DNA of 64,000 bases from Acidimicrobiia bacterium (GCA_013003395.1 JABDJC010000048.1:2615-66614), one strand, 5' to 3'. Counted from the first letter of the stretch, positions 583 through 64,000 are shown. The notes: generated from the letters alone by a model not told the origin. A program made the numbers and translations.

Positions 583-1887
583 TCAAGCGGCGACAACACC
601 GTGGTGAACGAGAACACGTCGCAGCGAGGCGATGATCGAAGGGTCGTATTCGTAGGCCGAACCCCGGTGCAATTGCTCGAGCGCCTCGATCGGAGGGAGC
701 CCCCGATCGTGGACACCACGGTCGTACTCGCTCGTGATCTTGATGATCTTCGAAGGGATCGGGAGCGACTCGTCCTTCTCGACTCCCGGCTGTCGGTAGG
801 GCGCATATTGCTGGCGCACCATGTCGGCAGCGCGCTCGAGGTACGGCGCTTCCGAGATGATCTGGGCACCCCATCGGGCAATGTCGTCTGACGTGTAACC
901 GGCGCGGATGATGGCGGGCTCGTTGAGCGTCACCCGACCGATGTCGTGCATCAGGGCGGCGTATTCGAGTTCCTCGACCTCTTCAGGATTCAGGCCCAGC
1001 TCCCGGCCGACGGACGTTGCGAGCTTTGCAGTTCTCACGGCATGGCCGTCAGGAGTCAGGTCCGCAACCTCGGGAATGCGGGCCAACGCCCTGATCATCT
1101 GTCGGTAGGTGGTGCGCGTCAGGTCGTACCGCATGAAGGCAAGGTGGGTGAATGCGTACGGCAACAGTGCCGCGGCGATAGACCAGCCGCCCATCTGAGG
1201 CCACGCAAGCCCCAACAAGGCACCTGAAGCGAACAGCGACAGCGCCACCGGCCAATCCTCGAGAGCCAAGAGCCACACATACCGAACGTCGAGTTGGTGC
1301 TCCTCCAGACCGATGAGCGCGTTCGCCGTTGCTCTCCCCAGGTACCACGCCATGGCACCGCCGGCGACCGATCCGAGGATGACGACATCCAACAGCGCGC
1401 CGGATCCGAGCAAGAGGTACTCGATGCCGAAGAATGCGACAACGAACAGGACCATCGCGATGGCCTCCGACACGAACCGGGTTCGTGCGCGGCGCCGCTC
1501 GCCGGTTCGTGCCACTGACACGATCCAGGCGCCGGCCAGGCCGAAGGCGGTGACTGCACTGGTGCCGTAGAGGTCAGGCATTCCGATGCCGCTTCCGAGC
1601 AGCAGCGGGGTCGCGGCTGCCATGCCGACTCCGAGAAACACCCGATCTCCACTGGGCGCCGGCACCGCGATGAGCTGCGCCAGGGTTATGAGCGTTGCGA
1701 GCACCAAGATCTGAACCAATCCGGTGCGGGCAGAGAGTGTCATGAGCGAACCGACGCCGACGAGGGCAATGAAGGTTGCAGCTCCGAGTCGCATCATGTG
1801 GCGATCAGCCATGTACGGCCAACTGTTCTGCAAGACGTCGGGCTTCGTCCTCGGAAACGACATCAGTCGATCCGTATGTCTCCCCAA
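583..1887 (-). CDS. membrane-anchored HD-domain (HD-GYP-like) phosphohydrolase
   Basis: N-terminal multi-TM domain followed by an HD motif (LEYAALMHDIGRVTL). The maximal ORF start at 1887 overlaps the upstream gene by 83 nt, so the real start is more likely an in-frame ATG at about 1812 or 1800. Confidence 0.7.
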   Translation of the reverse strand: MGRHTDRLMSFPRTKPDVLQNSWPYMADRHMMRLGAATFIALVGVGSLMTLSARTGLVQILVLATLITLAQLIAVPAPSGDRVFLGVGMAAATPLLLGSGIGMPDLYGTSAVTAFGLAGAWIVSVARTGERRRARTRFVSEAIAMVLFVVAFFGIEYLLLGSGALLDVVILGSVAGGAMAWYLGRATANALIGLEEHQLDVRYVWLLALEDWPVALSLFASGALLGLAWPQMGGWSIAAALLPYAFTHLAFMRYDLTRTTYRQMIRALARIPEVADLTPDGHAVRTAKLATSVGRELGLNPEEVEELEYAALMHDIGRVTLNEPAIIRAGYTSDDIARWGAQIISEAPYLERAADMVRQQYAPYRQPGVEKDESLPIPSKIIKITSEYDRGVHDRGLPPIEALEQLHRGSAYEYDPSIIASLRRVLVHHGVVAA

Positions 1888-3145
1888 GTCGTAGAAGCGC
1901 TGAAGCCAGCGCTTCTACGGCGATCGGATCGAACTGCGACCCGGCGTTCCGCCGAAGCTCCGACAAGGCGTACTCCTGGGTGAGGGCAACTCGATACGAC
2001 CGCGTGCTCGTCATCGCATCGAACGAGTCCGCAACAGCCAGGATGCACGCTTCGAGTTCGGGCGTGTCGCCGTGGTTGTGATTCGAACCGTGGTAGCCGT
2101 TGCCGTCGTAGTGCACGTGGTGGTTCGAAGCTATTTCCACCATCGGAGCGAGGAACTCGACCTCGGCCAGCAAGTCCTCGACGAGGTGGACGTGCCTCTG
2201 CATCTGCTCGTATTCCTTGGCATCGAGTTTCGCCCGCTTGGTGATGAGCTCGCGCGGCACCGCCAACTTGCCGACGTCGTGTATCAATGCAGCCCAACGA
2301 AGACGCTCGAGCTGCGTGCCATTGAAACCGAGCTCTTCTCCGATGACCGTCGAGAAGTGTGCCACCCGCTCGGTGTGCCCTCTGGTGTACAAGTCCTTCG
2401 CTTCCAACGCCTTGATGAACCCGCGCAACGTCGACTCCTGCGCTTCGCGTAGTGCCGAATACGACGACAACATGAGGTGACCAACGAAGAACACGACGAA
2501 GATGAGCGGGAGGCTCGCTGCGCCGATCGCGAGGTAAGCCGCGCCCAGGAGGCTGCCCAGAACTCCCATCCCGAGATACGACAAGAAGAACTGCCCGAGA
2601 TTCGACCAGGGCTTGATGTCGGTCTTGCCGTAGACCATCCGCACGGCGTATTGAACCAACGTGAGATTGACGAGGTAGAACGCCGCGACGCTCGGCACCG
2701 TGCCGAGCACTATCAGCCAAAGGTCGTCCGGCGTGACCGGCCCGTTCGGGAGAAACAGCTCGAACAGCGACAATCCGACAGTTGCGCTGAGCGCCAGTTG
2801 GCAGGCGTTGGCGAACGGCTGGAAGAAACGGCGGGCCTTGATATCCGCCGGAGTGAGCGGACTGAGCAGCTCCATTGCCACGACGCCGAGGACTGCCGCA
2901 CCACGACCAAAGACCACAGCAGCAGTGAAGGCGATCATGATCGAGGGGCTCCATATGAGACGATCGTTGGCTTCGGTGGCTCGCCACTCGAAAAGGATCA
3001 TCGCCCCGGCAAAGGACGCCCACAACCAGAACGGTTTGGGAAACGACTGCGTCAGGATCAAGGCAGAGATCGATACGCCTGCCACCACGGCAAACTGAAT
3101 CGCAACTCTACGTTTCGAAATGACCTGACCGTTCAGAACTTTCAC
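1805..3145 (-). CDS. 7TM-receptor domain fused to an HD-GYP phosphohydrolase (cyclic-di-GMP phosphodiesterase family)
   Basis: N-terminal 7-TM-like domain. C-terminal HD-GYP signature: HTERVAHFS...AALIHDVGKLAVP...HHVHYDGNGYHG. Confidence 0.8.
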   Translation of the reverse strand: MKVLNGQVISKRRVAIQFAVVAGVSISALILTQSFPKPFWLWASFAGAMILFEWRATEANDRLIWSPSIMIAFTAAVVFGRGAAVLGVVAMELLSPLTPADIKARRFFQPFANACQLALSATVGLSLFELFLPNGPVTPDDLWLIVLGTVPSVAAFYLVNLTLVQYAVRMVYGKTDIKPWSNLGQFFLSYLGMGVLGSLLGAAYLAIGAASLPLIFVVFFVGHLMLSSYSALREAQESTLRGFIKALEAKDLYTRGHTERVAHFSTVIGEELGFNGTQLERLRWAALIHDVGKLAVPRELITKRAKLDAKEYEQMQRHVHLVEDLLAEVEFLAPMVEIASNHHVHYDGNGYHGSNHNHGDTPELEACILAVADSFDAMTSTRSYRVALTQEYALSELRRNAGSQFDPIAVEALASALLRLGETYGSTDVVSEDEARRLAEQLAVHG

Positions 3146-43398: not shown

Positions 43399-44571
43399 TC
43401 AGAGAAACCGACTCGGGTCCTCGAGGTTGGCGATGACCGCAGCCATGAAGCGCTGCCCCATGGCTCCGTCGATGGCTCTGTGATCGTAAGAGATGCTCAG
43501 AGGCATGACCGTACCCACAACGATCTCGCCCTTCTCGACCACCGGCTTGGGCTCAGCCTTGCCGATCGAGAGGATCGCGAGCGTTCCGAGAGGAATGATG
43601 GGGGTGCCGTGTCCACCGCCGATGGCGCCGATGTTGGTGATGGTGAACGTCGCTCCTGACAGGTCATCAGGCGCCACGCGTCTGTTCTTCGCTCTCTCTG
43701 CGAGTTCCGCGATCAACCGTGCCAGCTCGACCGCGCTGTGCGTATCTGCCGAACGAACCACCGGCACGATCAGCCCTTCAGCCGTGTCGACGGCCACCCC
43801 GATGTCTCGCCGAGCGTGCAGCACCAGGTCGTCGCCGTCGATCGAGGCGTTGAAGCGAGGGTGCGCGTCGAGAACCGGAAGCACTGCACGGATCACGAGC
43901 GCCTCGATTGGGACCGCCACTCCGGAATCACTGGCAAGCGCTGTTCTTGCCGCCAGTAGCTGGTCAGCCCTCGCTTCGTGCAGCGTTGTGACGTGCGGAA
44001 TCTCGCTCCAACTTCGCTGCATGTGCTCAGCTATCGCTCGCCGAGTTCGCGACATCGGCACCCGCTCATCGCCTGCGACCGTGGCCGCCGACGAAGAACT
44101 CGCGGTCGATTGATCGAGATCCCCGAGGGTTATGGAGCCACCCGGACCGGTTCCGTGGATGGTGGTGAGATCGATTCCTCGTTCACGGGCCGCCTTGCGA
44201 ACGGCAGGCATGGCCCGAGCAGACGAGCCTCCCGAGACCTCGTCAGCCCGGCTCACCGCTTCTTGCTGCAGGTCGACGCTCTCGACCGGCGCCGGCGAAT
44301 CTGTTGCGTCGACGGTCTCGCCTGCAGCTCCGATCACTATCAGGACATCACCGACTTCGACGACATCGCCCGGGTTCCCACCGAGCGCGAGAACGGTGCC
44401 GGCGTATGGCGAAGGAATATCTACCAACGACTTGTCGGTCTCGACTTCAACGATGACTTGATCGACCGCGACAACGTCTCCAACCGTGACGTGCCAGGCG
44501 ACAATCTCGGCCTCTACAAGACCTTCACCGATGTCGGGCAAACGGAACTGCTGTGCCAAGGTCACCTCCAA
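43399..44571 (-). CDS. 2-oxoacid dehydrogenase E2 component (dihydrolipoyllysine-residue acyltransferase)
   Basis: Lipoyl domain with EVETDKSLVDIPSP. Peripheral-subunit-binding domain. Catalytic SISYDHRAIDGA. No E1 or E3 genes are in the window. Confidence 0.8.
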   Translation of the reverse strand: MEVTLAQQFRLPDIGEGLVEAEIVAWHVTVGDVVAVDQVIVEVETDKSLVDIPSPYAGTVLALGGNPGDVVEVGDVLIVIGAAGETVDATDSPAPVESVDLQQEAVSRADEVSGGSSARAMPAVRKAARERGIDLTTIHGTGPGGSITLGDLDQSTASSSSAATVAGDERVPMSRTRRAIAEHMQRSWSEIPHVTTLHEARADQLLAARTALASDSGVAVPIEALVIRAVLPVLDAHPRFNASIDGDDLVLHARRDIGVAVDTAEGLIVPVVRSADTHSAVELARLIAELAERAKNRRVAPDDLSGATFTITNIGAIGGGHGTPIIPLGTLAILSIGKAEPKPVVEKGEIVVGTVMPLSISYDHRAIDGAMGQRFMAAVIANLEDPSRFL

Positions 44572-44606
44572 GGCGCCAAACTAGCGATTGCTGTCCACCC
44601 CGGTCG

Positions 44607-46241
44607 TCAGTGGACCGATGCCAGGTAGCGGTGCACCAACTGGACAGCGGTCGATCCTTCGCCAACGCCTCCGGCGACCCGACGGATAGAACCGTGCCGG
44701 ACGTCGCCCGCCGCAAACACACCTGGAACACTGCACTCGAGGTGCATCGGGTCGCGAGACAGTGGCCAGCCTTCATTTTTGGCGTCTCGGCCGGTGTAGA
44801 GGTATCCCCGGTCATCGGCGGCCACAAGGCCACCGAGCCATTCGTTGCGTGGCTCAGCGCCGATGAACACGAAGAGGAACCGTGTTTCCAAGCGAACCAC
44901 TTTGCTCTTGGTTTCGATACTGATCGCCTCCAAGCTGTCCTCACCGTGAGCCTCGACAACGCGACTTTGGACCCGAACCGAAATGGACGGAGAAGCCTCG
45001 ATCTGATCTGCCAGATAGGCAGACATCGTTTCTCGGAGATCGGCTGCCTTCACGATCATCGTGACCGACCGTGCGAACTTCGCGAAGTAGAGGGCCCCCT
45101 GACCTGCGGAATTGGCTGACCCAACCACGATGACGTCCTCTCCTGCGGCATCGAGCGCCTCAGTTGTGGCCGCTCCGTAGAACACTCCAGCGCCCGTCAG
45201 CGCCCGCAGGCTCTCGGCATGCATCTCGCGATACGTCACGCCCGTCGCGACCACAAGCGCTGCCCCGCTCACGGACCGACCGTCGGCGAGGTCGAGGACC
45301 TTGTAGCGACCATCGAGCGACAGCTTGGTCACCTCTTGGGGAGCGAGGACTTCAGCACCGAAGCGGGTTGCCTGCGCCAACGCTCGCTCGGCGAGTTCGG
45401 CACCGCTCACGCCGTTTGGAAAGCCGAGATAGTTCTCGATCTTCGATGAAGTGCCTGCCTGTCCGCCGACTGCGTCGCGCTCCACCAGCAGCGTCGACAA
45501 TCCTTCCGAGGCGCCATAGACGGCTGCCGCCAGCCCGGCCGGGCCACCGCCGACAATCACCAAGTCGTAGTACTGCCTCGTGGGGTGATGATGCATCGAC
45601 AGCGCGTCGGCGAGGTCATCGATGTTCGGCGCCACGAGCGCATCGCCTTCCGCTCGCAGCACAACCGGAAGTTTCGCGTCGGATAGGCCGGCCCCGTCGA
45701 GCAGGCGAACGCCTTCGTCGCCATGATCGAGATCGACCCATCGGAACGGAACATGATTGCGGCCGAGGAAGTCACGCAGCTCGTGAGCGTCACGAGCCCA
45801 ACGGTGGCCAATCATCACAAGCGACTCCCCGGCCGTGTGCAGCGCCAGCCAATCGTTCAGCAGATCGTCGACGCCGTCGTGGAGCGAGTCGCCACTCCAT
45901 GGGGACACCACAACTTCATGTGCATCGAGCTCGGTCAGTCGCTGATGAACGGTGGCAACGTCGCTGTACGGCGCCACGATCACGACCTTTGAAGCCTCGA
46001 GGCCGATGTGGCTGCGCACCTCGCCGATGGTGGTGGCATCGCCAATGATCATCGCGACTGGCGATCGAAGGTGGTCGAGGAGATCTAGAACCCCATGGAC
46101 ATCTGTCGCTCCGACAACCTTGAACACGTTGCTGTAGAGGCGCTCCAGTTCGGTGCGCAACGATGCCAGCACGAGGCGGTCGCCGTGTGCCGCGAGGATG
46201 AACGGTTTCTCCACGGTTTCGAAGCTAGCGGTTCTGGCCAC
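44607..46241 (-). CDS. three-domain oxidoreductase: N-terminal receiver-like (CheY-fold-like) domain, a Cys-less thioredoxin/glutaredoxin-like domain, and a C-terminal thioredoxin-reductase-like FAD/NAD(P) domain lacking the CxxC redox centre
   Basis: N-terminus FILAAHGDRLV...VAMIIGD. Middle domain VPFRWVDLDHGDEGVRLLDGAGLSDAKLPVV. C-terminus YDLVIVGGGPAGLAAAVY (FAD), VIVVGSANSAGQGALYF (NAD(P)) and VFAAGDV. GAATTE occupies the place of the CATCDG motif. Confidence 0.65.
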   Translation of the reverse strand: MARTASFETVEKPFILAAHGDRLVLASLRTELERLYSNVFKVVGATDVHGVLDLLDHLRSPVAMIIGDATTIGEVRSHIGLEASKVVIVAPYSDVATVHQRLTELDAHEVVVSPWSGDSLHDGVDDLLNDWLALHTAGESLVMIGHRWARDAHELRDFLGRNHVPFRWVDLDHGDEGVRLLDGAGLSDAKLPVVLRAEGDALVAPNIDDLADALSMHHHPTRQYYDLVIVGGGPAGLAAAVYGASEGLSTLLVERDAVGGQAGTSSKIENYLGFPNGVSGAELAERALAQATRFGAEVLAPQEVTKLSLDGRYKVLDLADGRSVSGAALVVATGVTYREMHAESLRALTGAGVFYGAATTEALDAAGEDVIVVGSANSAGQGALYFAKFARSVTMIVKAADLRETMSAYLADQIEASPSISVRVQSRVVEAHGEDSLEAISIETKSKVVRLETRFLFVFIGAEPRNEWLGGLVAADDRGYLYTGRDAKNEGWPLSRDPMHLECSVPGVFAAGDVRHGSIRRVAGGVGEGSTAVQLVHRYLASVH

Positions 46242-46252
46242 GACGGACAGAG

Positions 46253-47602
46253 TCAGCCGTCAGTGCTATTCGATGCCTCTTCTTCCTGGAGAGCGCTGCG
46301 AGCATACGATCCGCCCGCGTTCCAGAGAATCCAACCGAATCCCCTCTCTTCCGCCACTTCGATCTCTGTTCGGATCTGGGCAGCGCTGTAGTAGAAGGCC
46401 TGAAGCCAGGGACGCATCAATGCCGGCCCTTCGAATCGTGGCCATCCGTCGTCGAGCGCCCTGGAAACCACTGGACCCGGATGGTCGTTCGGTTCGGCGA
46501 ACCCGAGCCAGCCTGGCGAATAGTGACTGGGGTAGATCATCGGGCTCAGCGCATCGACGATCCGCGACAACTCCTCGGGTCGTTGGCCAATCCCCTCGTC
46601 AGTCGGTGACGAGAGAACGATCCCGAAGATGTCAGCAGACACCGCACAACCGAGCGGATGCAAGGTCTCTGTGGCCTCGGTGAGGAATGAAGCAATCGCG
46701 CCAACCCGCTCCTCTTGCGACAAGGAACGTTTGGCCGACGCGGCCGCGGCTGCTTTGCCCGTCGGGAATCGAACGTAGTCGAACTGGACCTCGTCGAATC
46801 CCAGCTCGCAAGCTTCGACCGCAAGCGCAAGGGGATACTCCCAGTTGACTTCGTCGACCGGATCGAGCCACCACCCGGCCAGCTTGGCCTCGGCGTCGAG
46901 ACCGGACTTGATGCGATCCTCGAACGTGACAATGCGCGTGATCGTGTAGAGACCCTCAGCCTTCGCAGCTGCCAACGCCTCGACCGGGTCGTACATCGGA
47001 TTCACAGCCCCGAGATCGTGAGCCTCCTCGACCGAGGTCTCATACAAGACTTCGCCCGTTTCGTCTTTGGTGTCGAATACGAGAGCGTTCACGACCGTTG
47101 TCGCAGCGAGGTCGATCAGCGCCGCAAATTCCTCTGGCTCCATCGCCACGTACTTGCTCACACGCAGCGCACGGACGATCCGAGGCTCCATCGCAACAGG
47201 TTCTGGTGGTTCGCCCGTAAATGAGAACGACGTGGACAACCATGCGGGACGCTCGACCACTACCTCGCCCGCCGCCACTCCCTCGATCTCGAATCGCCCC
47301 TCATCGTCGACTTCGACCGTCACCCCACCGGGAACGGTCACGAGGGCTCCTGGGAGCGGCTCACCAGACGGCGTGGTGACCGCGCCTGACAGCGTGAACA
47401 AGGGCACGGTGGTGGTGGTTTCTGGTGGAAGTGTCGTCGTCGGCGCCACCGTGGTAGTCGTGGCGACCGTTGGCGCGGGACCTGTGGTTGACACCCCGAA
47501 CGTGTTCGACACGTCGAGCGTGGTCGACGATGAGTCGGCGCTCGTGCACGCAGCCACGGAAAGAGTCACGGCGCAAACCAACACTGCTGTTCGGAAAGAC
47601 AT
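46253..47602 (-). CDS. lipoprotein with a putative glycoside-hydrolase-like TIM-barrel domain (GHL/DUF4015-like) and a Thr-rich linker
   Basis: The start is taken at ATG 47602. Lipoprotein signal MSFRTAVLVCAVTLSVAAC. Poly-Thr/Pro linker. The DUF4015 assignment is from recall, not a search. Confidence 0.55.
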   Translation of the reverse strand: MSFRTAVLVCAVTLSVAACTSADSSSTTLDVSNTFGVSTTGPAPTVATTTTVAPTTTLPPETTTTVPLFTLSGAVTTPSGEPLPGALVTVPGGVTVEVDDEGRFEIEGVAAGEVVVERPAWLSTSFSFTGEPPEPVAMEPRIVRALRVSKYVAMEPEEFAALIDLAATTVVNALVFDTKDETGEVLYETSVEEAHDLGAVNPMYDPVEALAAAKAEGLYTITRIVTFEDRIKSGLDAEAKLAGWWLDPVDEVNWEYPLALAVEACELGFDEVQFDYVRFPTGKAAAAASAKRSLSQEERVGAIASFLTEATETLHPLGCAVSADIFGIVLSSPTDEGIGQRPEELSRIVDALSPMIYPSHYSPGWLGFAEPNDHPGPVVSRALDDGWPRFEGPALMRPWLQAFYYSAAQIRTEIEVAEERGFGWILWNAGGSYARSALQEEEASNSTDG

Positions 47603-47675
47603 TGGCGAGATCGTACCTGGGCGGTCAACGCCGGCACGTTCATGTTGCAGAGCGGAGCTGGGTACGCTTGAGGCA

Positions 47676-48644
47676 ATGGAACAGCCCACCTTCAGTGCGA
47701 TACAGACCACCAGACTCGGGGTCTTGTCAGCAGTTCTCGAAAGCGAAGTTGGGCTTGCTCTGCGCCTGTTGCGCGACATCATGGATCAGGGTCTCGGCTT
47801 CGAGGCGGTCCTCAGCGAGGTCCTCATACCCATCCAGGCCGACATCGGCCATCGATGGAGTCTCGGCGAATACCGGGTGTCAGAAGAGCATGCCGTCACT
47901 GCCACCATGGAGACACTGGTCGCCAGCCTTGCCGGTTCGATTGAGGGCGACCCGGACGCGCCTCGCGTGGTTGTCGTTTGTGCGGAAGGTGACACCCACT
48001 CGCTGCCGGCGCGAATGGTCGCCGCGTTCTTGTCGCTTCGCGGATGGCGAGTTCAGTTTCTCGGAACCGGGATTCCGGCTGACGACCTCGGAGAGCACCT
48101 CGCCGACGGCGAGTTCCATGCTCTCGTTCTGGCGTGCGCCATGCGCGCCCACCTGCGCGGCGCGCGAGCCTGCATCGAGGCATCCCACCGTGCCGGGGTC
48201 CCCGTGATCGTCGGCGGACGGGCTTTCGGGTCCGACGACTCGATTGCTGTGAGCCTTGGGGCCGACGGGTGGAGCAACAGCTTCGACGACATCGACGCCG
48301 TGCTGCACACTTGGCATCCCGATCCTGCCAAGGCCGAGGCCATCGTGCAGCAGCCAGGTCCGGAGTTGGCGATGCTCACCAAACGTCATCGCTCGATCGT
48401 CGAATCCGCGCTTGGATCGTTGCCGGAAGGCATCACACACGAGGAGTTGGACCTCCTCTTGGACAACCTGGCGTCGTCTGTCCTGGTTGGCAACCCCGAT
48501 CCGCTGATTCAGCATGCTTCTTGGCGCGACGCCCTCTGGACGACACGAGTACCGACCGCCTCGCTGCTCGAGGCTGTTGCGGACGTCATCGATCCGACGG
48601 CCGAGCAGATCCATCGACACCTCGCGACGGCCATCGCGGTGTGA
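47676..48644 (+). CDS. cobalamin (B12)-binding domain protein (B12-binding_2 helical bundle plus B12-binding Rossmann-like domain); no DNA-binding domain
   Basis: ATG 47676. VLSEVLIPIQADIGHRWSLGEYRVSEEHAVT (B12-binding_2-like). VVVVCAEGDTHSLPARMVAAFLSLRGWRVQFLG (DxHxxG-like B12 motif, His-on). Confidence 0.6.
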   Translation: MEQPTFSAIQTTRLGVLSAVLESEVGLALRLLRDIMDQGLGFEAVLSEVLIPIQADIGHRWSLGEYRVSEEHAVTATMETLVASLAGSIEGDPDAPRVVVVCAEGDTHSLPARMVAAFLSLRGWRVQFLGTGIPADDLGEHLADGEFHALVLACAMRAHLRGARACIEASHRAGVPVIVGGRAFGSDDSIAVSLGADGWSNSFDDIDAVLHTWHPDPAKAEAIVQQPGPELAMLTKRHRSIVESALGSLPEGITHEELDLLLDNLASSVLVGNPDPLIQHASWRDALWTTRVPTASLLEAVADVIDPTAEQIHRHLATAIAV

Positions 48645-48695: not shown

Positions 48696-49310
48696 GTGAA
48701 CAGCCCACACAGTGCACTGGTCGAGCGCCGTAGAGAGTCGGTACTCGATGCCGCGGAACGATTGCTTGCACGTGAAGGCGCGGACGTGACGATGACCCAG
48801 TTGGCTGCGGCGGCCGATGTGGGCCGCCGCACGTTGTTTCGCTACTTCGAAACTAGAGAGTCGCTGATCGCCGAAGCCATCGATCGCAGCTACACGCGAC
48901 TGATGCGGGACATTTTCGCCGCCCATGCCACCGACACGTCGAGCCCTTCGCAGCTCATCCGGGAAGTGCTCACCGCCACCCATCTCGTGGCCTCCGACAT
49001 GGGACGGGCCCATTGGCAGATCGCCGCCGATCCTGAGTCGCATCCAGGCCTGACGCAAGCATCTGAGCGCAGACGATCAGCTCGCTCGCGGTACGTGAAG
49101 GCCTTCTGTCAGCAACTCTGGGATGCAGCCTCGATGCCCGGATCGCCGCCACAGTGGCTCCACGACGCCTTCGGGCTCGTCGAGTCGCTGTTCGCCTACG
49201 AGGCGCTCCGGCGAGACTTCGGTCGATCCGACCGCGAGATCATCGACTCGGCGGTCAACCTGATGCAGGCTGCCTTCGATCGGGCAGTCAGCCAGGCGGA
49301 CATTCCCTAG
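48696..49310 (+). CDS. TetR-family transcriptional regulator
   Basis: HTH: VTMTQLAAAADVGRRTLFRYFETRESL. The gene is convergent with the proline dehydrogenase-pruA operon. Confidence 0.8.
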   Translation: MNSPHSALVERRRESVLDAAERLLAREGADVTMTQLAAAADVGRRTLFRYFETRESLIAEAIDRSYTRLMRDIFAAHATDTSSPSQLIREVLTATHLVASDMGRAHWQIAADPESHPGLTQASERRRSARSRYVKAFCQQLWDAASMPGSPPQWLHDAFGLVESLFAYEALRRDFGRSDREIIDSAVNLMQAAFDRAVSQADIP

Positions 49311-50902
49311 GTGACGAGATCGGCGGCGAACCCTTGCCGCATGGTGTTTTCCGTGACCACCCATGCTGAAGAGAGCGCCCGCAGCGTGTCGAGCGTTCCG
49401 GCCTTGGGCCCGGTGCCGCTCTGCAACATCCCGCCGAAGGGCTGCCTCCCGACTACGGCCCCGGTGGTACCGCGATTCACGTAGATGTTGCCCGCCTGGA
49501 GCTCGCCGGCGCGTGCGATGGCGTCCGGCGATCGAGAGAACAGTCCTGCTGTGAGCGCGTAGTCGGTGGCATTGGCGAGCTCGAATGCGTGGTCGAGGTC
49601 ATTGGCGTGAACGACCGCCAGCAGCGGGCCGAACTGCTCGTCGCGTCGCAACGGCGCTTCAGATTCCAATCCGTCGACGATCGTCGGTGGGACAAACCAG
49701 CCCGTCTCCGGGAGTCTCTGGTGGCGGTAGCGGACGGTTCCCCTCGTGCCATCAATGACCGACAGCAGCCGCTCGTGAGCATCCGCGTCGATGACCGGTC
49801 CGACAGAGGTGGCGCCGTCTTTGGGGTGCCCCAAGATGAATGTGTCGGCGTGGGCCGCCAGGCGTTCGATGACCTCGTCGTAGCGGCGACCCACCACGAT
49901 GAGCCGCGAACACGCAGAGCACTTCTGGCCGGCAAATCCAAAGGCCGCCTTGGCGACCTCAGGAACGGCCTCGTCCAGATCGGCGTCCGAGTCCACCACG
50001 ATGGCGTTCTTGCCGCCCATCTCGGCGATCACCCGCTTCACATACCGGCTCGAGTGCGAGCTGGCTGCGGCTCGTTGGTTGATCGCCAACCCCACGGCTC
50101 GGGACCCTGTGAATTCGATCGTCGCCACGTCGGGATGCTCGACGAGCCGAGCGCCTGCGACTTCCCCTCGGCCTGGGGTGAAGGACAACACGCCCTCTGG
50201 AAGGCCGGCAGCCTCGAAGGCCTTCACGATCTCGTACGCAATCGCAGGAGTCTGCTCGGCCGGCTTGAACACGACAGCATTGCCGGCGGCGATGGCCGCC
50301 GACACCATGCCCATCGGAATCGCCAGCGGGAAGTTCCACGGGGAGATGACGGCGGTGACGCCGCGCGCCCGGTAGCCGGCGGAGTTGGCCTCGCCGAGCG
50401 GCGACTGCACGACCAACGACGCGTCGAGTTCGACGATGGCACGTCCGTAGAACTCGAGGAAGTCGATGGCCTCGCAGAGGTCGCCGTCCGCTTCGGACCA
50501 CGGCTTGCCGGCCTCGAACACCTCGATGGCGGCAATTCGGTCTCGATCGGCGCGCAACGCGTCGGCCGCGGCGAACAGCACCTCGGCGCGACCGGCAGGA
50601 GGGACCGCCGACCACAGCCGGTGGGTGCGGTTCGCCACGGCCACGGCTTCGTCGATCACCGCGGCACTGGCCGAGCCCGACCTGGCGACGATCCGGGTCG
50701 GATCGGCCGGATCGAAGGAGTCGATGCCATCTTCGGTCGCCACCGGGCGGCCGTCGATGGTCACCGGGACATTCAGACCGCGCAAGGCCGCGTCCGCCAC
50801 CTCGACTTCGTGTGCGAAACGTTCGACGACACCGGGTAGGTGCCACGCGCGCATCGCCTCGGGTTCGTAGGCCTCCAACGATCGGCTCGAAGCTGCGGTC
50901 AT
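49307..50902 (-). CDS. pruA: L-glutamate gamma-semialdehyde (delta-1-pyrroline-5-carboxylate) dehydrogenase
   Basis: ALDH motifs VISPWNFP, FTGSRAVG and EMGGKNA. Catalytic Cys FGFAGQKCSACSR. There is a 4-nt overlap with the proline dehydrogenase gene. Confidence 0.85.
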   Translation of the reverse strand: MTAASSRSLEAYEPEAMRAWHLPGVVERFAHEVEVADAALRGLNVPVTIDGRPVATEDGIDSFDPADPTRIVARSGSASAAVIDEAVAVANRTHRLWSAVPPAGRAEVLFAAADALRADRDRIAAIEVFEAGKPWSEADGDLCEAIDFLEFYGRAIVELDASLVVQSPLGEANSAGYRARGVTAVISPWNFPLAIPMGMVSAAIAAGNAVVFKPAEQTPAIAYEIVKAFEAAGLPEGVLSFTPGRGEVAGARLVEHPDVATIEFTGSRAVGLAINQRAAASSHSSRYVKRVIAEMGGKNAIVVDSDADLDEAVPEVAKAAFGFAGQKCSACSRLIVVGRRYDEVIERLAAHADTFILGHPKDGATSVGPVIDADAHERLLSVIDGTRGTVRYRHQRLPETGWFVPPTIVDGLESEAPLRRDEQFGPLLAVVHANDLDHAFELANATDYALTAGLFSRSPDAIARAGELQAGNIYVNRGTTGAVVGRQPFGGMLQSGTGPKAGTLDTLRALSSAWVVTENTMRQGFAADLVT

Positions 50903-52257
50903 GCAGCATCCTCCTTGCTGGTGAATCTGGGCGCCGCGAGCAGCTGGTCTCGCGACATCTGCTTTGAGCGGTTCTGACGGATGAAGCTCTCGTTGCTGGT
51001 GTTCTCGAGCAATCGGCGGACCAGGTAGGACATTCCGGGAACGAGCTCGCCCACGGGGACGTAGATCCGGCTCCGAATCCCGGCTTTGGCGGCTGACGCC
51101 GCCAGATCACCACCCATACCATGCAGCGCCTGGATCTCGAGCGCCGACTTCGGGAGTCCGCGGACCGACGCCGCAGCCAGTGCATGAGCAAGCGAGCGTA
51201 CGTTGTGCGAGGCAAAAGACGGCCGGACGACGTCTGCGTTGTCGACCAAGAGGAGCGAACACCGCTCGAAGTTCGCGTCCGTGTCGACCTTGGCGTCGTA
51301 GACCGGTTGGGGCCAGCCGTGGGCCGATGCGACGACGGTCTCGTAGTCCCAGTACGCCCCCTTGACGAGTCGGATGCCGATCGGCACGCGGCGATCGCGC
51401 TCCTGCGCGATGATCCGCTGGAGGTCGTCGAAGCTGTCACGCAGGTACGCCTGGACGACGATGCCGATGTGGGCGTTCGGCCAGTCGTGCGAGATGTCGG
51501 CGAACAAGCGCTGCGTCAACGTCTTCACCGCATACTGCTCCATGTCGAACCAGACCATCACGTCATGTTCCGTGGCCGCCTGCATGATCGGGTCGAGTCG
51601 TCGCCTCACGTCGGCGAGTGCTATCTCTGCGCTCAATGGCTGATACTTGGCAGATAGGCCCGTTGGCTTGATGGCCACCGCAACCCTCGGCAACACGCCG
51701 AGCTGATCTCTCTCCAAGCCGGGACTCGCGGGCCAGCTACCGGCTGCACGGCCGAGGTGGGCGACTATGTCGAGGATTCTCGCCGCGTAGTCATCGGCCT
51801 GATCGGCGGTGACGGTCTTCTCCCCCAAGGCGTCGATGATGACGCCAACCTCGGCGTCCCAATGGCGACGGACGAGGGGCTCGACGTCAGCGGCTCGTCT
51901 GCCACCGATGAAGTTCTTGGCCATCGTCGAGATACCGCGATCAGCCGCCCAGGCCGCGATCCGGGAACCGAACGGTATCCGGGCGGCGAGCGCAATAGGC
52001 AGCCGGACCCACCATGGCATGGCGTCGTGACCCAGGTAGCCCCGGAGATGGGCCATGACATCGTCTGGCCCTTCCATCGCCGGAAACGCTTCGGCAAATC
52101 GAAACAGCCCGACCCGAAGATCGTGGTTGCGCATGACCGATGCGATGACGAACTCGTCGAGTCTCCCTCGCAGGCCGACGTCGCCCGGGTCGAGGTCGCC
52201 GCTCACGGCCCGCACCGTGGCTTCGAGCGATGACGAGGCTATGGGTGCGGTCATCAT
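50899..52257 (-). CDS. proline dehydrogenase
   Basis: PRODH TIM-barrel motifs: MVWFDMEQY, IGIVVQAYL, IRLVKGAYWD and FASHN. Confidence 0.8.
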   Translation of the reverse strand: MMTAPIASSSLEATVRAVSGDLDPGDVGLRGRLDEFVIASVMRNHDLRVGLFRFAEAFPAMEGPDDVMAHLRGYLGHDAMPWWVRLPIALAARIPFGSRIAAWAADRGISTMAKNFIGGRRAADVEPLVRRHWDAEVGVIIDALGEKTVTADQADDYAARILDIVAHLGRAAGSWPASPGLERDQLGVLPRVAVAIKPTGLSAKYQPLSAEIALADVRRRLDPIMQAATEHDVMVWFDMEQYAVKTLTQRLFADISHDWPNAHIGIVVQAYLRDSFDDLQRIIAQERDRRVPIGIRLVKGAYWDYETVVASAHGWPQPVYDAKVDTDANFERCSLLLVDNADVVRPSFASHNVRSLAHALAAASVRGLPKSALEIQALHGMGGDLAASAAKAGIRSRIYVPVGELVPGMSYLVRRLLENTSNESFIRQNRSKQMSRDQLLAAPRFTSKEDAA

Positions 52258-62838: not shown

Positions 62839-64000
62839 TCACAAGACGTCCTTCAAGTCGGTGAGCACCACTACCTCGCCATGGAGCGATTTGTGCACCG
62901 GGCAGCGATCGGCGATTGCCAGAAGCCTCGAGCGCTGGTCGTCGTCCAGATCGCCCTCCAGAAGGATCGATCGCTCGATCCGATCCACGGTTCCCGATTC
63001 GGACTCGCACTCGGCACAGTCTCGGGCGTGAACCTTGCGGTGGGACAGACGCACCGTCACGGCGTCGAGGGGCCACTGTTTGCGGTCTGCATACATGCGC
63101 AGCGTGATCGAGGTGCAGCTCCCGAGCGCCGTGAGCAGGTAGTCGTAGGGAGTCGGGCCCGTGTTCGTGCCACCTACCGAAGCCGGCTCGTCCACGGTGA
63201 GCGGGAAGCCGTTGGAGATCACCTCGGTGCGAAAACCCGACTCGGTGCGCACGGTCGTCACACTGGCAGGGGCGTCTGCAATGAAGTCGGGTTGGGAATG
63301 GTCTCGCAAGTCGACGCTCAGATACCGCTCGACCCAAGATGCGACCACCTCGGCTACGTAGCGGGCGTCCTTCTCTTCCATCACGAGGTGATCGGCGTCG
63401 TCGAGAGATATGAAGCTCTTGGGATGCCGGGCCCATTCGAAGATCGTCGCCGCGTTTTCCACTCCGACCGTCATATCGATCGGTGAGTGGAGAACCAGTA
63501 GTGGCTTGCCGAGCGTCGCGACCGCAGTGGCGGCGTCGAACCGGTCGACGTCGTCGACGAACTGCTGGGTGATCGTGAACTCGCGGCCGGCGAGGAGCAC
63601 GTTGGCGCTCCCTGCTTGCTCGATCCGCTCGAGATCGGACACGAGATGGCGCTTGACGTGATCCGGATCGGCCGGGGCGCCGATGGTGACGACAGCGCGC
63701 ACAGACTCGAGGGAGCCGGCCACCGCCAACGCAGCAGTGCCGCCCAGCGAGTGCCCGACCACGAGCTCTGGCGCCAGGTACTTCTCCGACAGAAAGTTGC
63801 TGGCAGCCTCGAGATCGCTCACCGTGGTGGAGAAGTTCGTTTGCGAGAAGTCACCGCTGCTCTCACCGAGACCGGTGAAGTCGAATCGCAATGTTGCGAT
63901 CCCATGGTGGGCCAGCGTACGGGTGATGTGCCCGATGGCCCTGAGGTTCTTGGAGCACGTGAAACAGTGGGCGTAGAGGGCATAGGCGACAGGGTTGCCG
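62839..64000 (-). CDS. bifunctional alpha/beta-hydrolase - OsmC/Ohr-family protein; the 5' end lies beyond the window
   Basis: The frame is open to the window end (...AYALYAHCFTCSKNLRAIGHITRTLAHHGIATLRFDFTGLGESSGDF). Nucleophile elbow GHSLGG. C-terminal OsmC-like domain TALGSCTSITLRMYADRKQW...ADRCPVHKSLHG. Confidence 0.7.
   Translation of the reverse strand, partial: GNPVAYALYAHCFTCSKNLRAIGHITRTLAHHGIATLRFDFTGLGESSGDFSQTNFSTTVSDLEAASNFLSEKYLAPELVVGHSLGGTAALAVAGSLESVRAVVTIGAPADPDHVKRHLVSDLERIEQAGSANVLLAGREFTITQQFVDDVDRFDAATAVATLGKPLLVLHSPIDMTVGVENAATIFEWARHPKSFISLDDADHLVMEEKDARYVAEVVASWVERYLSVDLRDHSQPDFIADAPASVTTVRTESGFRTEVISNGFPLTVDEPASVGGTNTGPTPYDYLLTALGSCTSITLRMYADRKQWPLDAVTVRLSHRKVHARDCAECESESGTVDRIERSILLEGDLDDDQRSRLLAIADRCPVHKSLHGEVVVLTDLKDVL

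Follow-up and report, generated by a model that had tools for sequence, protein, structure and literature searches.

What role may be played by a protein that joins a receiver-like, a glutaredoxin (Grx)-like and a thioredoxin reductase (TrxR)-like domain in one chain, lacks the redox cysteines of the latter two, and is encoded directly upstream of a 2-oxoacid dehydrogenase E2 gene that stands apart from any E1 or E3 partner? This question is raised by the minus strand between positions 43,399 and 46,241 of a 64,000-nucleotide stretch of DNA from an Acidimicrobiia bacterium (GCA_013003395.1, JABDJC010000048.1:2615-66614), which in its full length is referred to as the window. An earlier reading of this region, made without database searches, had regarded the pairing of such a fusion with a lone E2 as no standard operon and had suggested that the two could constitute a regulatory or redox-relay module. 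The anatomy itself has been confirmed by Pfam, sequence profiles, BLASTP and AlphaFold2 (AF2) prediction: the protein is indeed composed of a receiver fold, a Cys-less Grx-like domain and a Cys-less FAD module of the low-Mr TrxR type. This architecture is not unusual: it corresponds to a class already listed in census tables of response regulators, and the loss of cysteines is a trait of the whole family. The window gene has diverged as a paralogue within the flavoproteins known as ‘TrxB-type’ response regulators, and its product is a pseudo-receiver variant of this already catalogued but functionally unstudied family. The explanation that we favor, and to which a probability of roughly 0.65 may be assigned, is a pseudo-receiver paralogue of the TrxB type that works by non-disulfide electron transfer and lies next to an ordinary, stand-alone E2.

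Domain anatomy of the flavoprotein

The open reading frame (ORF) of 544 codons has been recovered exactly as the sequence-only reading had described it (Table 1). Its true start is likely the GTG codon adopted in the NCBI annotation, in which the protein appears as a 535-residue entry (P0001, ‘FAD-dependent oxidoreductase [Acidimicrobiia bacterium]’) that is 100% identical to the window flavoprotein; the flavoprotein and the E2 are each 100% identical to an entry from an Acidimicrobiia metagenome-assembled genome (MAG). The sole domain match obtained with Pfam has been Pyr_redox_2 (residues 225-529). The full-length AF2 model, with a mean predicted local distance difference test score (pLDDT) of 87.7 and a predicted template-modelling score (pTM) of 0.75, resolves into a (βα)5 unit (14-135), a Grx fold (141-213) and a TrxR module (224-542).

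The C-terminal module has scored 204.8 bits against the NCBIfam model TRX_reduct (TIGR01292), which is under the equivalog cut-off of 343.45. Its best solved match is the TrxR of Thermosipho africanus (7jyp, ∼31% identity, 161 bits), and the best superposition has been obtained with TrxRs solved in the flavin-reducing (FR) conformation, with template-modelling (TM) scores of 0.88-0.93. Aligned with solved TrxRs, the module shows A357 and T360 where the Escherichia coli enzyme has C135 and C138, and E361 in place of the acid catalyst D139, which bears out the earlier observation that GAATTE replaces the CATC redox disulfide. The FAD motifs are intact (G231-G-G-P-A-G236 and G512-D513), the NAD(P) motif reads G374-S-A-N-S-A379, and of the three arginines of HRRxxxR two have counterparts here, K398 and R403, only the first of which is conserved family-wide. 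The earlier reading had named an AhpF-like N-domain with missed cysteines as a possible refutation; this has been rejected, the N-terminus being a receiver followed by a single Grx fold, and the sole cysteine of the protein (C503) being non-conserved.

For the N-terminal domain, the Pfam search for Response_reg that had been proposed as a check has remained without a match even at E ≤ 10, and neither Response_reg nor Glutaredoxin has been matched when residues 1-221, 1-137 and 138-221 have been submitted separately to Pfam and NCBIfam at the same threshold. The homology of the receiver and of the Grx-like domain has been demonstrated instead by profiles, by BLASTP to family members and by structure prediction. 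Compared by BLASTP with the receiver of a PF00072-bearing homologue, the N-terminus has shown 31% identity (E = 2e-11), and AF2 has placed its strands and helices in (beta-alpha)5 order (from E14-18 to H119-135) with pLDDT values >90 over most of the domain; both results uphold the degenerate receiver/CheY-like fold suggested beforehand. A profile derived from the protein's own four-member clade alone has still retrieved a response regulator (3lte, E = 0.005), and Spo0F has come up shortly behind it (E ≈ 0.4-0.7).

Of the five residues required for phosphorylation, four have been lost in the window receiver, where H19-G20 stand at the Mg-binding DD pair and where T has given way to A90 and K to S113, so that the acceptor Asp (D68) alone remains; it is followed by a deletion of ∼7 residues and a short alpha3. 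Among canonical members (n = 102), the two residues of the DD pair are found in 93 and 90, the acceptor D in 98, T in 88 and K in 90, whereas the window protein and the three relatives nearest to it read H-G/S/T, D, A/S/C and S/T/L and share the deletion behind the acceptor. The term pseudo-receiver applies to (beta-alpha)5 receiver folds in which one or more of DD, D, T and K are missing, and several percent of all receivers fall into this class (PMC12632262). By this definition the N-terminus of the window protein, which has lost the Mg-binding pair, T and K, is a pseudo-receiver; no kinase is adjacent.

The middle domain has been identified through a profile of 30 sequences covering residues 132-224, which has matched mycoredoxin-1 of Mycobacterium tuberculosis (2lqo) with E = 2.6e-9. 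Here W148-A-R-D-A152 aligns to the W-C-G-Y-C of mycoredoxin, the profile itself showing W-A-R-x-S, and the cis-Pro motif (L191-P192) is conserved. AF2 has predicted the order β-α-β-α-β-β-α with a core pLDDT of ∼88, for which the best Foldseek matches have been glutaredoxins, Mrx1 and NrdH-like proteins (3ic4, 2lqo, 7c10, 3zit). The Cys-less Grx-like middle fold that had been read from the sequence is therefore substantiated by the profile match, by Foldseek and by the residue alignment. CxxC is absent from this domain throughout the family, the consensus being A/S-x-x-A/S. In an exhaustive profile search the domain has been found in 3,875 cluster representatives; where real matches continue past it, a TrxR-like module directly follows, and what precedes it is either a receiver or no recognized domain. 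The top hit of that search, a 4,708-residue cadherin/Big_9 repeat protein (P0241), has been discarded as a repeat-driven false positive with 30 partial matches.

The TrxB-type family and the decay of its receiver

Alignments covering 97-98% of the window protein, at 44-55% identity, link it to thousands of proteins in which Response_reg and Pyr_redox_2 are combined and which are named ‘thioredoxin reductase (NADPH)’, ‘response regulator’ or, in UniRef, ‘Fused response regulator/thioredoxin-disulfide reductase’. Census tables give them as the ‘TrxB’ class of response regulators, exemplified by SCO7298 of Streptomyces coelicolor with its kinase SCO7297, and Galperin's ‘Mycobacterium-like REC + thioredoxin reductase’ denotes the same class. 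In the majority of members the receiver is canonical and a cNMP-binding histidine kinase serves as partner. A histidine kinase on the same strand (cNMP_binding + HisKA + HATPase_c, the first denoting cyclic-nucleotide binding) lies beside the family gene in 46 of 80 genome loci, and none has been detected by Pfam among the window ORFs scanned (∼58 ORFs across 64 kb). No biochemical study of the family has been found in the literature, and the sole functional note encountered is the induction of sco7298 (‘trxB3’) by polysulfide in expression data.

Cysteine occurs at neither redox position in any of the 121 nearest homologues (0/121), among which Y355, G356 and E361 are invariant and A362 is kept in all but one. 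A second set of 68 proteins, collected separately from the genome loci, has given the same picture for Cyanobacteria, Chloroflexi, Acidobacteria, Actinobacteria, Bacteroidota and other phyla: none has a redox Cys (0/68), and the loop residues are likewise invariant or nearly so. Judged from these alignments, the loss of cysteines is a trait of the whole family and not of the window gene alone. As the family possesses neither of the classical redox disulfides, the protein cannot work as a thioredoxin or glutaredoxin reductase, and the label ‘thioredoxin reductase’ is untenable for any member sampled.

Cysteines have been seen at two other columns, those of window residues 326 (∼45264-45266, FAD domain) and 365 (∼45147-45149, NAD(P) domain, four residues after E361), in 77 and 76 of the 121 proteins and in 39 and 48 of the 68, respectively. 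An alternative Cys pair made up of these columns has been rejected for the window protein, whose residues there are G and A. Concerning the genomic contexts of the family, the gene for a zf-UBP zinc-finger protein of ∼100 residues is a direct neighbor at 9 of 80 genome loci (e.g., L031, 9554-9856). In 5-6 loci, Acidobacteria MAGs included (L017, 6804-8390; L050, 8234-9202), genes that by eye resemble egtB and egtD of ergothioneine biosynthesis, a resemblance not confirmed by a family search, lie two to three genes upstream of the REC-flavoprotein, which may be mere lineage synteny.

A neighbor-joining (NJ) tree of the shared Grx-TrxR part has separated a uniformly canonical clade from a second one in which intact, decayed and absent receivers are mixed, and the window protein falls into the latter. 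The paralogous sub-lineage of which it forms part has seen repeated decay or loss of the receiver and is apparently actinobacterial, its named members and contigs being Acidimicrobiia. Within the window clade, the receivers share 45-70% identity as compared with 77-92% for the TrxR modules, which suggests that the constraint on the receiver has become relaxed but is not absent; in canonical pairs both parts are similarly conserved. In two Acidimicrobiia genomes, a receiver-less paralogue of 416-424 residues has been found ∼3.5 kb from a canonical REC copy with its kinase (Table 1). Other relatives with decayed receivers, some of them without the acceptor Asp, have an overlapping nucleotide-cyclase-AAA-TPR gene upstream. 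In L002 (2693-6004) and L089 (2711-6001) this gene encodes ∼1,100 residues with Guanylate_cyc, AAA_16 and TPR, and its stop overlaps the flavoprotein start; a further protein, P0252, is a REC-Grx-TrxR-cNMP_binding fusion. The cyclase gene, the cNMP-binding kinase and the P0252 fusion point to a link with cyclic-nucleotide signaling.

The E2 gene and its surroundings

The E2 comprises Biotin_lipoyl (8-80, 1.1e-19), E3_binding (119-152, 2.4e-13) and 2-oxoacid_dh (168-389, 1.3e-73) in Pfam, with the lipoyl lysine K47 in a TDK motif and the catalytic DHRAIDG at 363-369; it has reached no NCBIfam equivalog cut-off. Translation likely starts at the TTG given in Table 1, which is preceded by GGAGG 5 nt upstream and yields the 386-residue length also seen in protein P0121. 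The gap towards the flavoprotein amounts to 35 bp between the ORFs and to 47 bp when counted from this start. As the sequence-only reading had stated, the gene is complete, with lipoyl, E3-binding and catalytic domains, and lies 35 bp downstream on the same strand. The absence of partners in the window has also proved correct: no E1_dh, Transket_pyr-type E1 or Pyr_redox_dim E3 has appeared in the Pfam scans of the ∼58 ORFs in 64 kb, and a six-frame regular-expression search of the window for the class-I disulfide reductase motif (CxxxxC-[ILVM]-P-[ST]-K) has revealed no E3-like gene.

The conservation of the gene neighborhood, proposed earlier as a check of the putative module, has been encountered solely in fully syntenic relatives. 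The flavoprotein and E2 genes adjoin each other only in relatives of 67-68% identity (three genomes at 67-100%), and these are syntenic over >10 kb on both sides, in the order proline dehydrogenase, Δ1-pyrroline-5-carboxylate (P5C) dehydrogenase, TetR, B12-binding protein, DUF4015, flavoprotein, E2, OmpA-like. When the E2 has been compared by tblastn with 84 family loci including flanks of up to 10 kb, one syntenic relative has been matched and none of the 83 others. The E2 orthologues at 56% identity (L086, L088) are located directly beside DUF4015, with no flavoprotein and with no E1 or E3 nearby. Because these orthologues stand alone without the flavoprotein, the lone E2 is the normal state of the lineage; the flavoprotein gene is a clade-specific arrival beside it, and the adjacency is a local accident of gene order and not a conserved redox module. 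Lone E2 genes are ordinary in actinobacteria, as the ‘widely separated’ genes of pyruvate dehydrogenase (PDH) in M. tuberculosis illustrate (PMC10415282, citing Tian et al., 2005), and in Corynebacteriales one E2p serves both PDH and 2-oxoglutarate dehydrogenase (ODH).

Further genes of the window have been noted in passing. Close to DUF4015, an ORF on the plus strand (47067-48644) carries B12-binding and B12-binding_2, the real gene probably encoding ∼320 residues as in L001 and L085; it adjoins the TetR regulator and the proline dehydrogenase/P5C dehydrogenase pair (49307-52257). On the minus strand, an alpha/beta hydrolase is fused to a C-terminal OsmC-like peroxiredoxin domain (62839-63891), and two adjacent HD-GYP-type (HD_5) proteins, one of them with a MASE9 membrane sensor domain, lie beside a DUF5317 gene (583-3145).

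Table 1. Positions of the flavoprotein, its domains, the adjacent genes and the paralogue pairs; positions refer to the window unless a locus is named.
Feature	Position	Strand	Remarks
Three-domain flavoprotein ORF	44607..46241	minus	544 aa; probable real start GTG 46214, giving 535 aa
Pseudo-receiver domain (residues 13-135)	45837..46205	minus	BLASTP to family receiver and AF2 fold; Pfam PF00072 unmatched
Cys-less glutaredoxin/mycoredoxin-like domain (residues 140-215)	45597..45824	minus	Profile against 2lqo, Foldseek
Low-Mr thioredoxin-reductase-like FAD/NAD(P) module (residues 224-544)	44610..45572	minus	Pfam, NCBIfam, structure comparison
Former redox-disulfide loop Y355-G-A-A-T-T-E-A362	45156..45179	minus	Family alignment
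2-Oxoacid dehydrogenase E2, complete	43399..44571	minus	390 aa; probable real start TTG 44559, giving 386 aa
DUF4015 putative glycosyl hydrolase + CarboxypepD_reg	46253..47782	minus	Upstream, co-directional; putative hydrophobic signal-like N-terminal segment
Paralogue pair loci	L090 6001-7275 and 10879-12534; L091 6001-7251 and 10764-12419		MerR regulator and NYN/OST-HTH protein in between

Mechanism, alternatives and known systems

According to the explanation favored here, the window protein would still bind FAD, and the flavin is probably reduced by NAD(P)H, a step that is uncertain because the NAD(P) motif is altered to G-S-A-N-S-A and only one of the three arginines that bind the 2'-phosphate is conserved. 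From the reduced flavin, electrons would most likely pass directly to a non-disulfide acceptor, for instance to a quinone, to O2 or to another redox protein of small size. That the former disulfide loop is so strictly conserved argues for a surface that is still functional, either as a new active site or as an interface with the fused Grx-like domain. Control of the output would have moved from phosphorylation to a phosphorylation-independent role of the receiver-like domain, e.g., in conformation or dimerization, and the E2 would serve E1 and E3 partners whose genes lie elsewhere in the genome.

Several points weigh against this explanation. The second Gly of the NAD(P) motif GxGxxA is replaced by Ala in most family members, and family-wide a single one of the three arginines for the NADPH 2'-phosphate is retained; the binding of FAD, the use of NAD(P)H and the nature of the electron acceptor are all deduced from sequence. 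With the acceptor Asp kept, some residual phosphorylation is conceivable, and the sub-lineage has been delineated by a single NJ tree without support values. Moreover, the genes for DUF4015, flavoprotein and E2 share one orientation in the window's clade, the gaps between them measure 11-47 bp and contain no terminator-like site, and a scan for promoters and terminators has found nothing on the minus strand. Co-transcription and a clade-specific functional link are possible, although the DUF4015 hydrolase, which is probably exported, is an unlikely functional partner.

Among the alternatives, the protein may be pictured as a catalytically silent ‘fossil’ of a Grx-TrxR couple, in which the Grx-like domain sits permanently on the disulfide loop and the whole acts as an NAD(P)H/flavin redox sensor or as a scaffold. 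We consider this improbable, yet worth keeping in mind: both partners of the Grx/TrxR type are present in one chain and both are Cys-less, the (near-)invariance of Y355, G356, E361 and A362 without Cys is as expected of a conserved interface, the AF2 module adopts an FR-like state with the loop turned outward as in the TrxR-Trx complex 1f6m, and the signaling contexts (cNMP-binding kinase, nucleotide cyclase, C-terminal cNMP-binding fusion) would suit a sensor. The TrxR module is very strongly conserved (∼65-92% identity) in its FAD-binding residues and around the flavin, however, which would be just as much in keeping with an enzyme, and no sensor of such a kind is known. Far less can be said for membership among the genuine TrxR-type ferredoxin/flavodoxin-NADP+ reductases (FNRs; YumC/BsFNR/CtFNR), with N-terminal domains acquired later, to which the earlier reading had likened the replaced disulfide. 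A TrxR fold without CxxC is common to both, but the solved FNRs (3ab1, 5xhu, 3lzw, 6gas, 2zbw) have scored 47-64 bits as compared with 161 bits for the TrxR 7jyp, and in their alignments 4-9 residues are left at the C-terminus of the query versus 16-38 at those of the FNRs, so that the flavin-covering C-terminal extension is absent. Because of these low scores and the missing extension, the loss of cysteines seems to have occurred independently of the FNRs; the resemblance to them is superficial, and true membership is hardly credible.

Very doubtful, too, is the initial idea that flavoprotein and E2 constitute a redox-relay or regulatory pair, the flavoprotein docking, for example, on the E3-binding domain as a substitute for E3 or as a modulator. 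Both genes do lie on one strand, 35-47 bp apart and with no terminator-like structure in between, their order is kept in three genomes at 67-100% identity, and the window offers no E3 gene. Yet the three genomes are syntenic over >10 kb on either side, so that this conservation carries little information, while E2 is missing within 10 kb at all 83 other family loci (0/83) and the 56%-identity orthologues dispense with the flavoprotein and still have no E1 or E3 neighbors. The flavoprotein furthermore possesses neither the redox cysteines needed for lipoamide dehydrogenase chemistry nor a dimerization domain of the E3 type, and a lone E2 gene is normal in actinobacteria (PMC10415282). With the adjacency confined to close relatives and a lone E2 being ordinary, no support has been obtained for a module of this kind, and a pseudo-receiver TrxB-type paralogue beside an ordinary E2 remains our preferred explanation.

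In its own right, this locus matters little: the E2 is an ordinary one, and its pairing with the flavoprotein does not amount to a redox system of a new kind. Of wider consequence is that a large and phylogenetically broad class of two-component outputs carries the label of thioredoxin(-disulfide) reductases, while its sampled members are devoid of the cysteines needed. The actinobacterial paralogues that combine a decayed or absent receiver with a conserved flavin module are presumably natural, phosphorylation-free versions of these proteins and convenient for a first biochemical characterization. More speculatively, and with rather low confidence, one may postulate that the whole TrxB-type family is a Grx-TrxR couple stripped of its redox cysteines and repurposed, with the window lineage escaping phospho-control. 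If this were true, the conserved Tyr/Glu loop would support a new flavin chemistry or the sensing of NAD(P)H or redox state under two-component and cyclic-nucleotide control, and the window module might be co-transcribed with a lipoyl E2.

Regarding known systems, the E2 resembles DlaT of M. tuberculosis and AceF of Corynebacterium glutamicum in being a complete lipoylated E2 encoded away from E1 and E3 genes (PMC10415282). Unlike these stand-alone actinobacterial E2s, it carries just one lipoyl domain and ends canonically (…NLEDPSRFL), and no counterpart of the Phe-containing C-terminal insertion of Actinobacteria-class E2p (PMC10415282) has been recognized in it by eye. With low-Mr TrxB, the flavoprotein shares the two-domain FAD/NAD(P) fold, the intact FAD motifs and an acidic residue at the D139 position; it differs in the missing CxxC, a score below the TIGR01292 cut-off, the altered NAD(P) motif G-S-A-N-S-A and the two additional N-terminal domains. 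AhpF, NTRC and thioredoxin-glutathione reductase likewise unite a domain of the Trx superfamily with a flavin module of the disulfide-reductase type in one chain, but they keep redox cysteines in both modules. AhpF, moreover, contains a double Trx fold in another domain arrangement, as reflected in root-mean-square deviations of 18-28 Å between the full model and 4o5q, 1hyu and 4xvg. Mycoredoxin-1, glutaredoxins and NrdH-like redoxins have the fold and the cis-Pro loop in common with the middle domain, which in contrast has no CxxC, and hence no thiol chemistry, and is fused between receiver and flavin module.

The closest resemblance is found with the TrxB-type response regulators, in which the three-domain order, the invariant residues of the Grx-like domain and the Cys-less Y-G-A-x-x-x-E-A loop are the same. 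The window protein departs from them in its receiver, which has lost DD, T and K, is deleted behind the acceptor Asp and has fallen below Pfam detection, and in the absence of an adjacent cNMP-binding kinase. This receiver joins the bacterial pseudo-receivers, with which it shares a (beta-alpha)5 fold without the full set of conserved phosphorylation residues; unlike in bacterial pseudo-receivers generally, its decay can be followed stepwise within one paralogue lineage, down to the loss of the entire domain.

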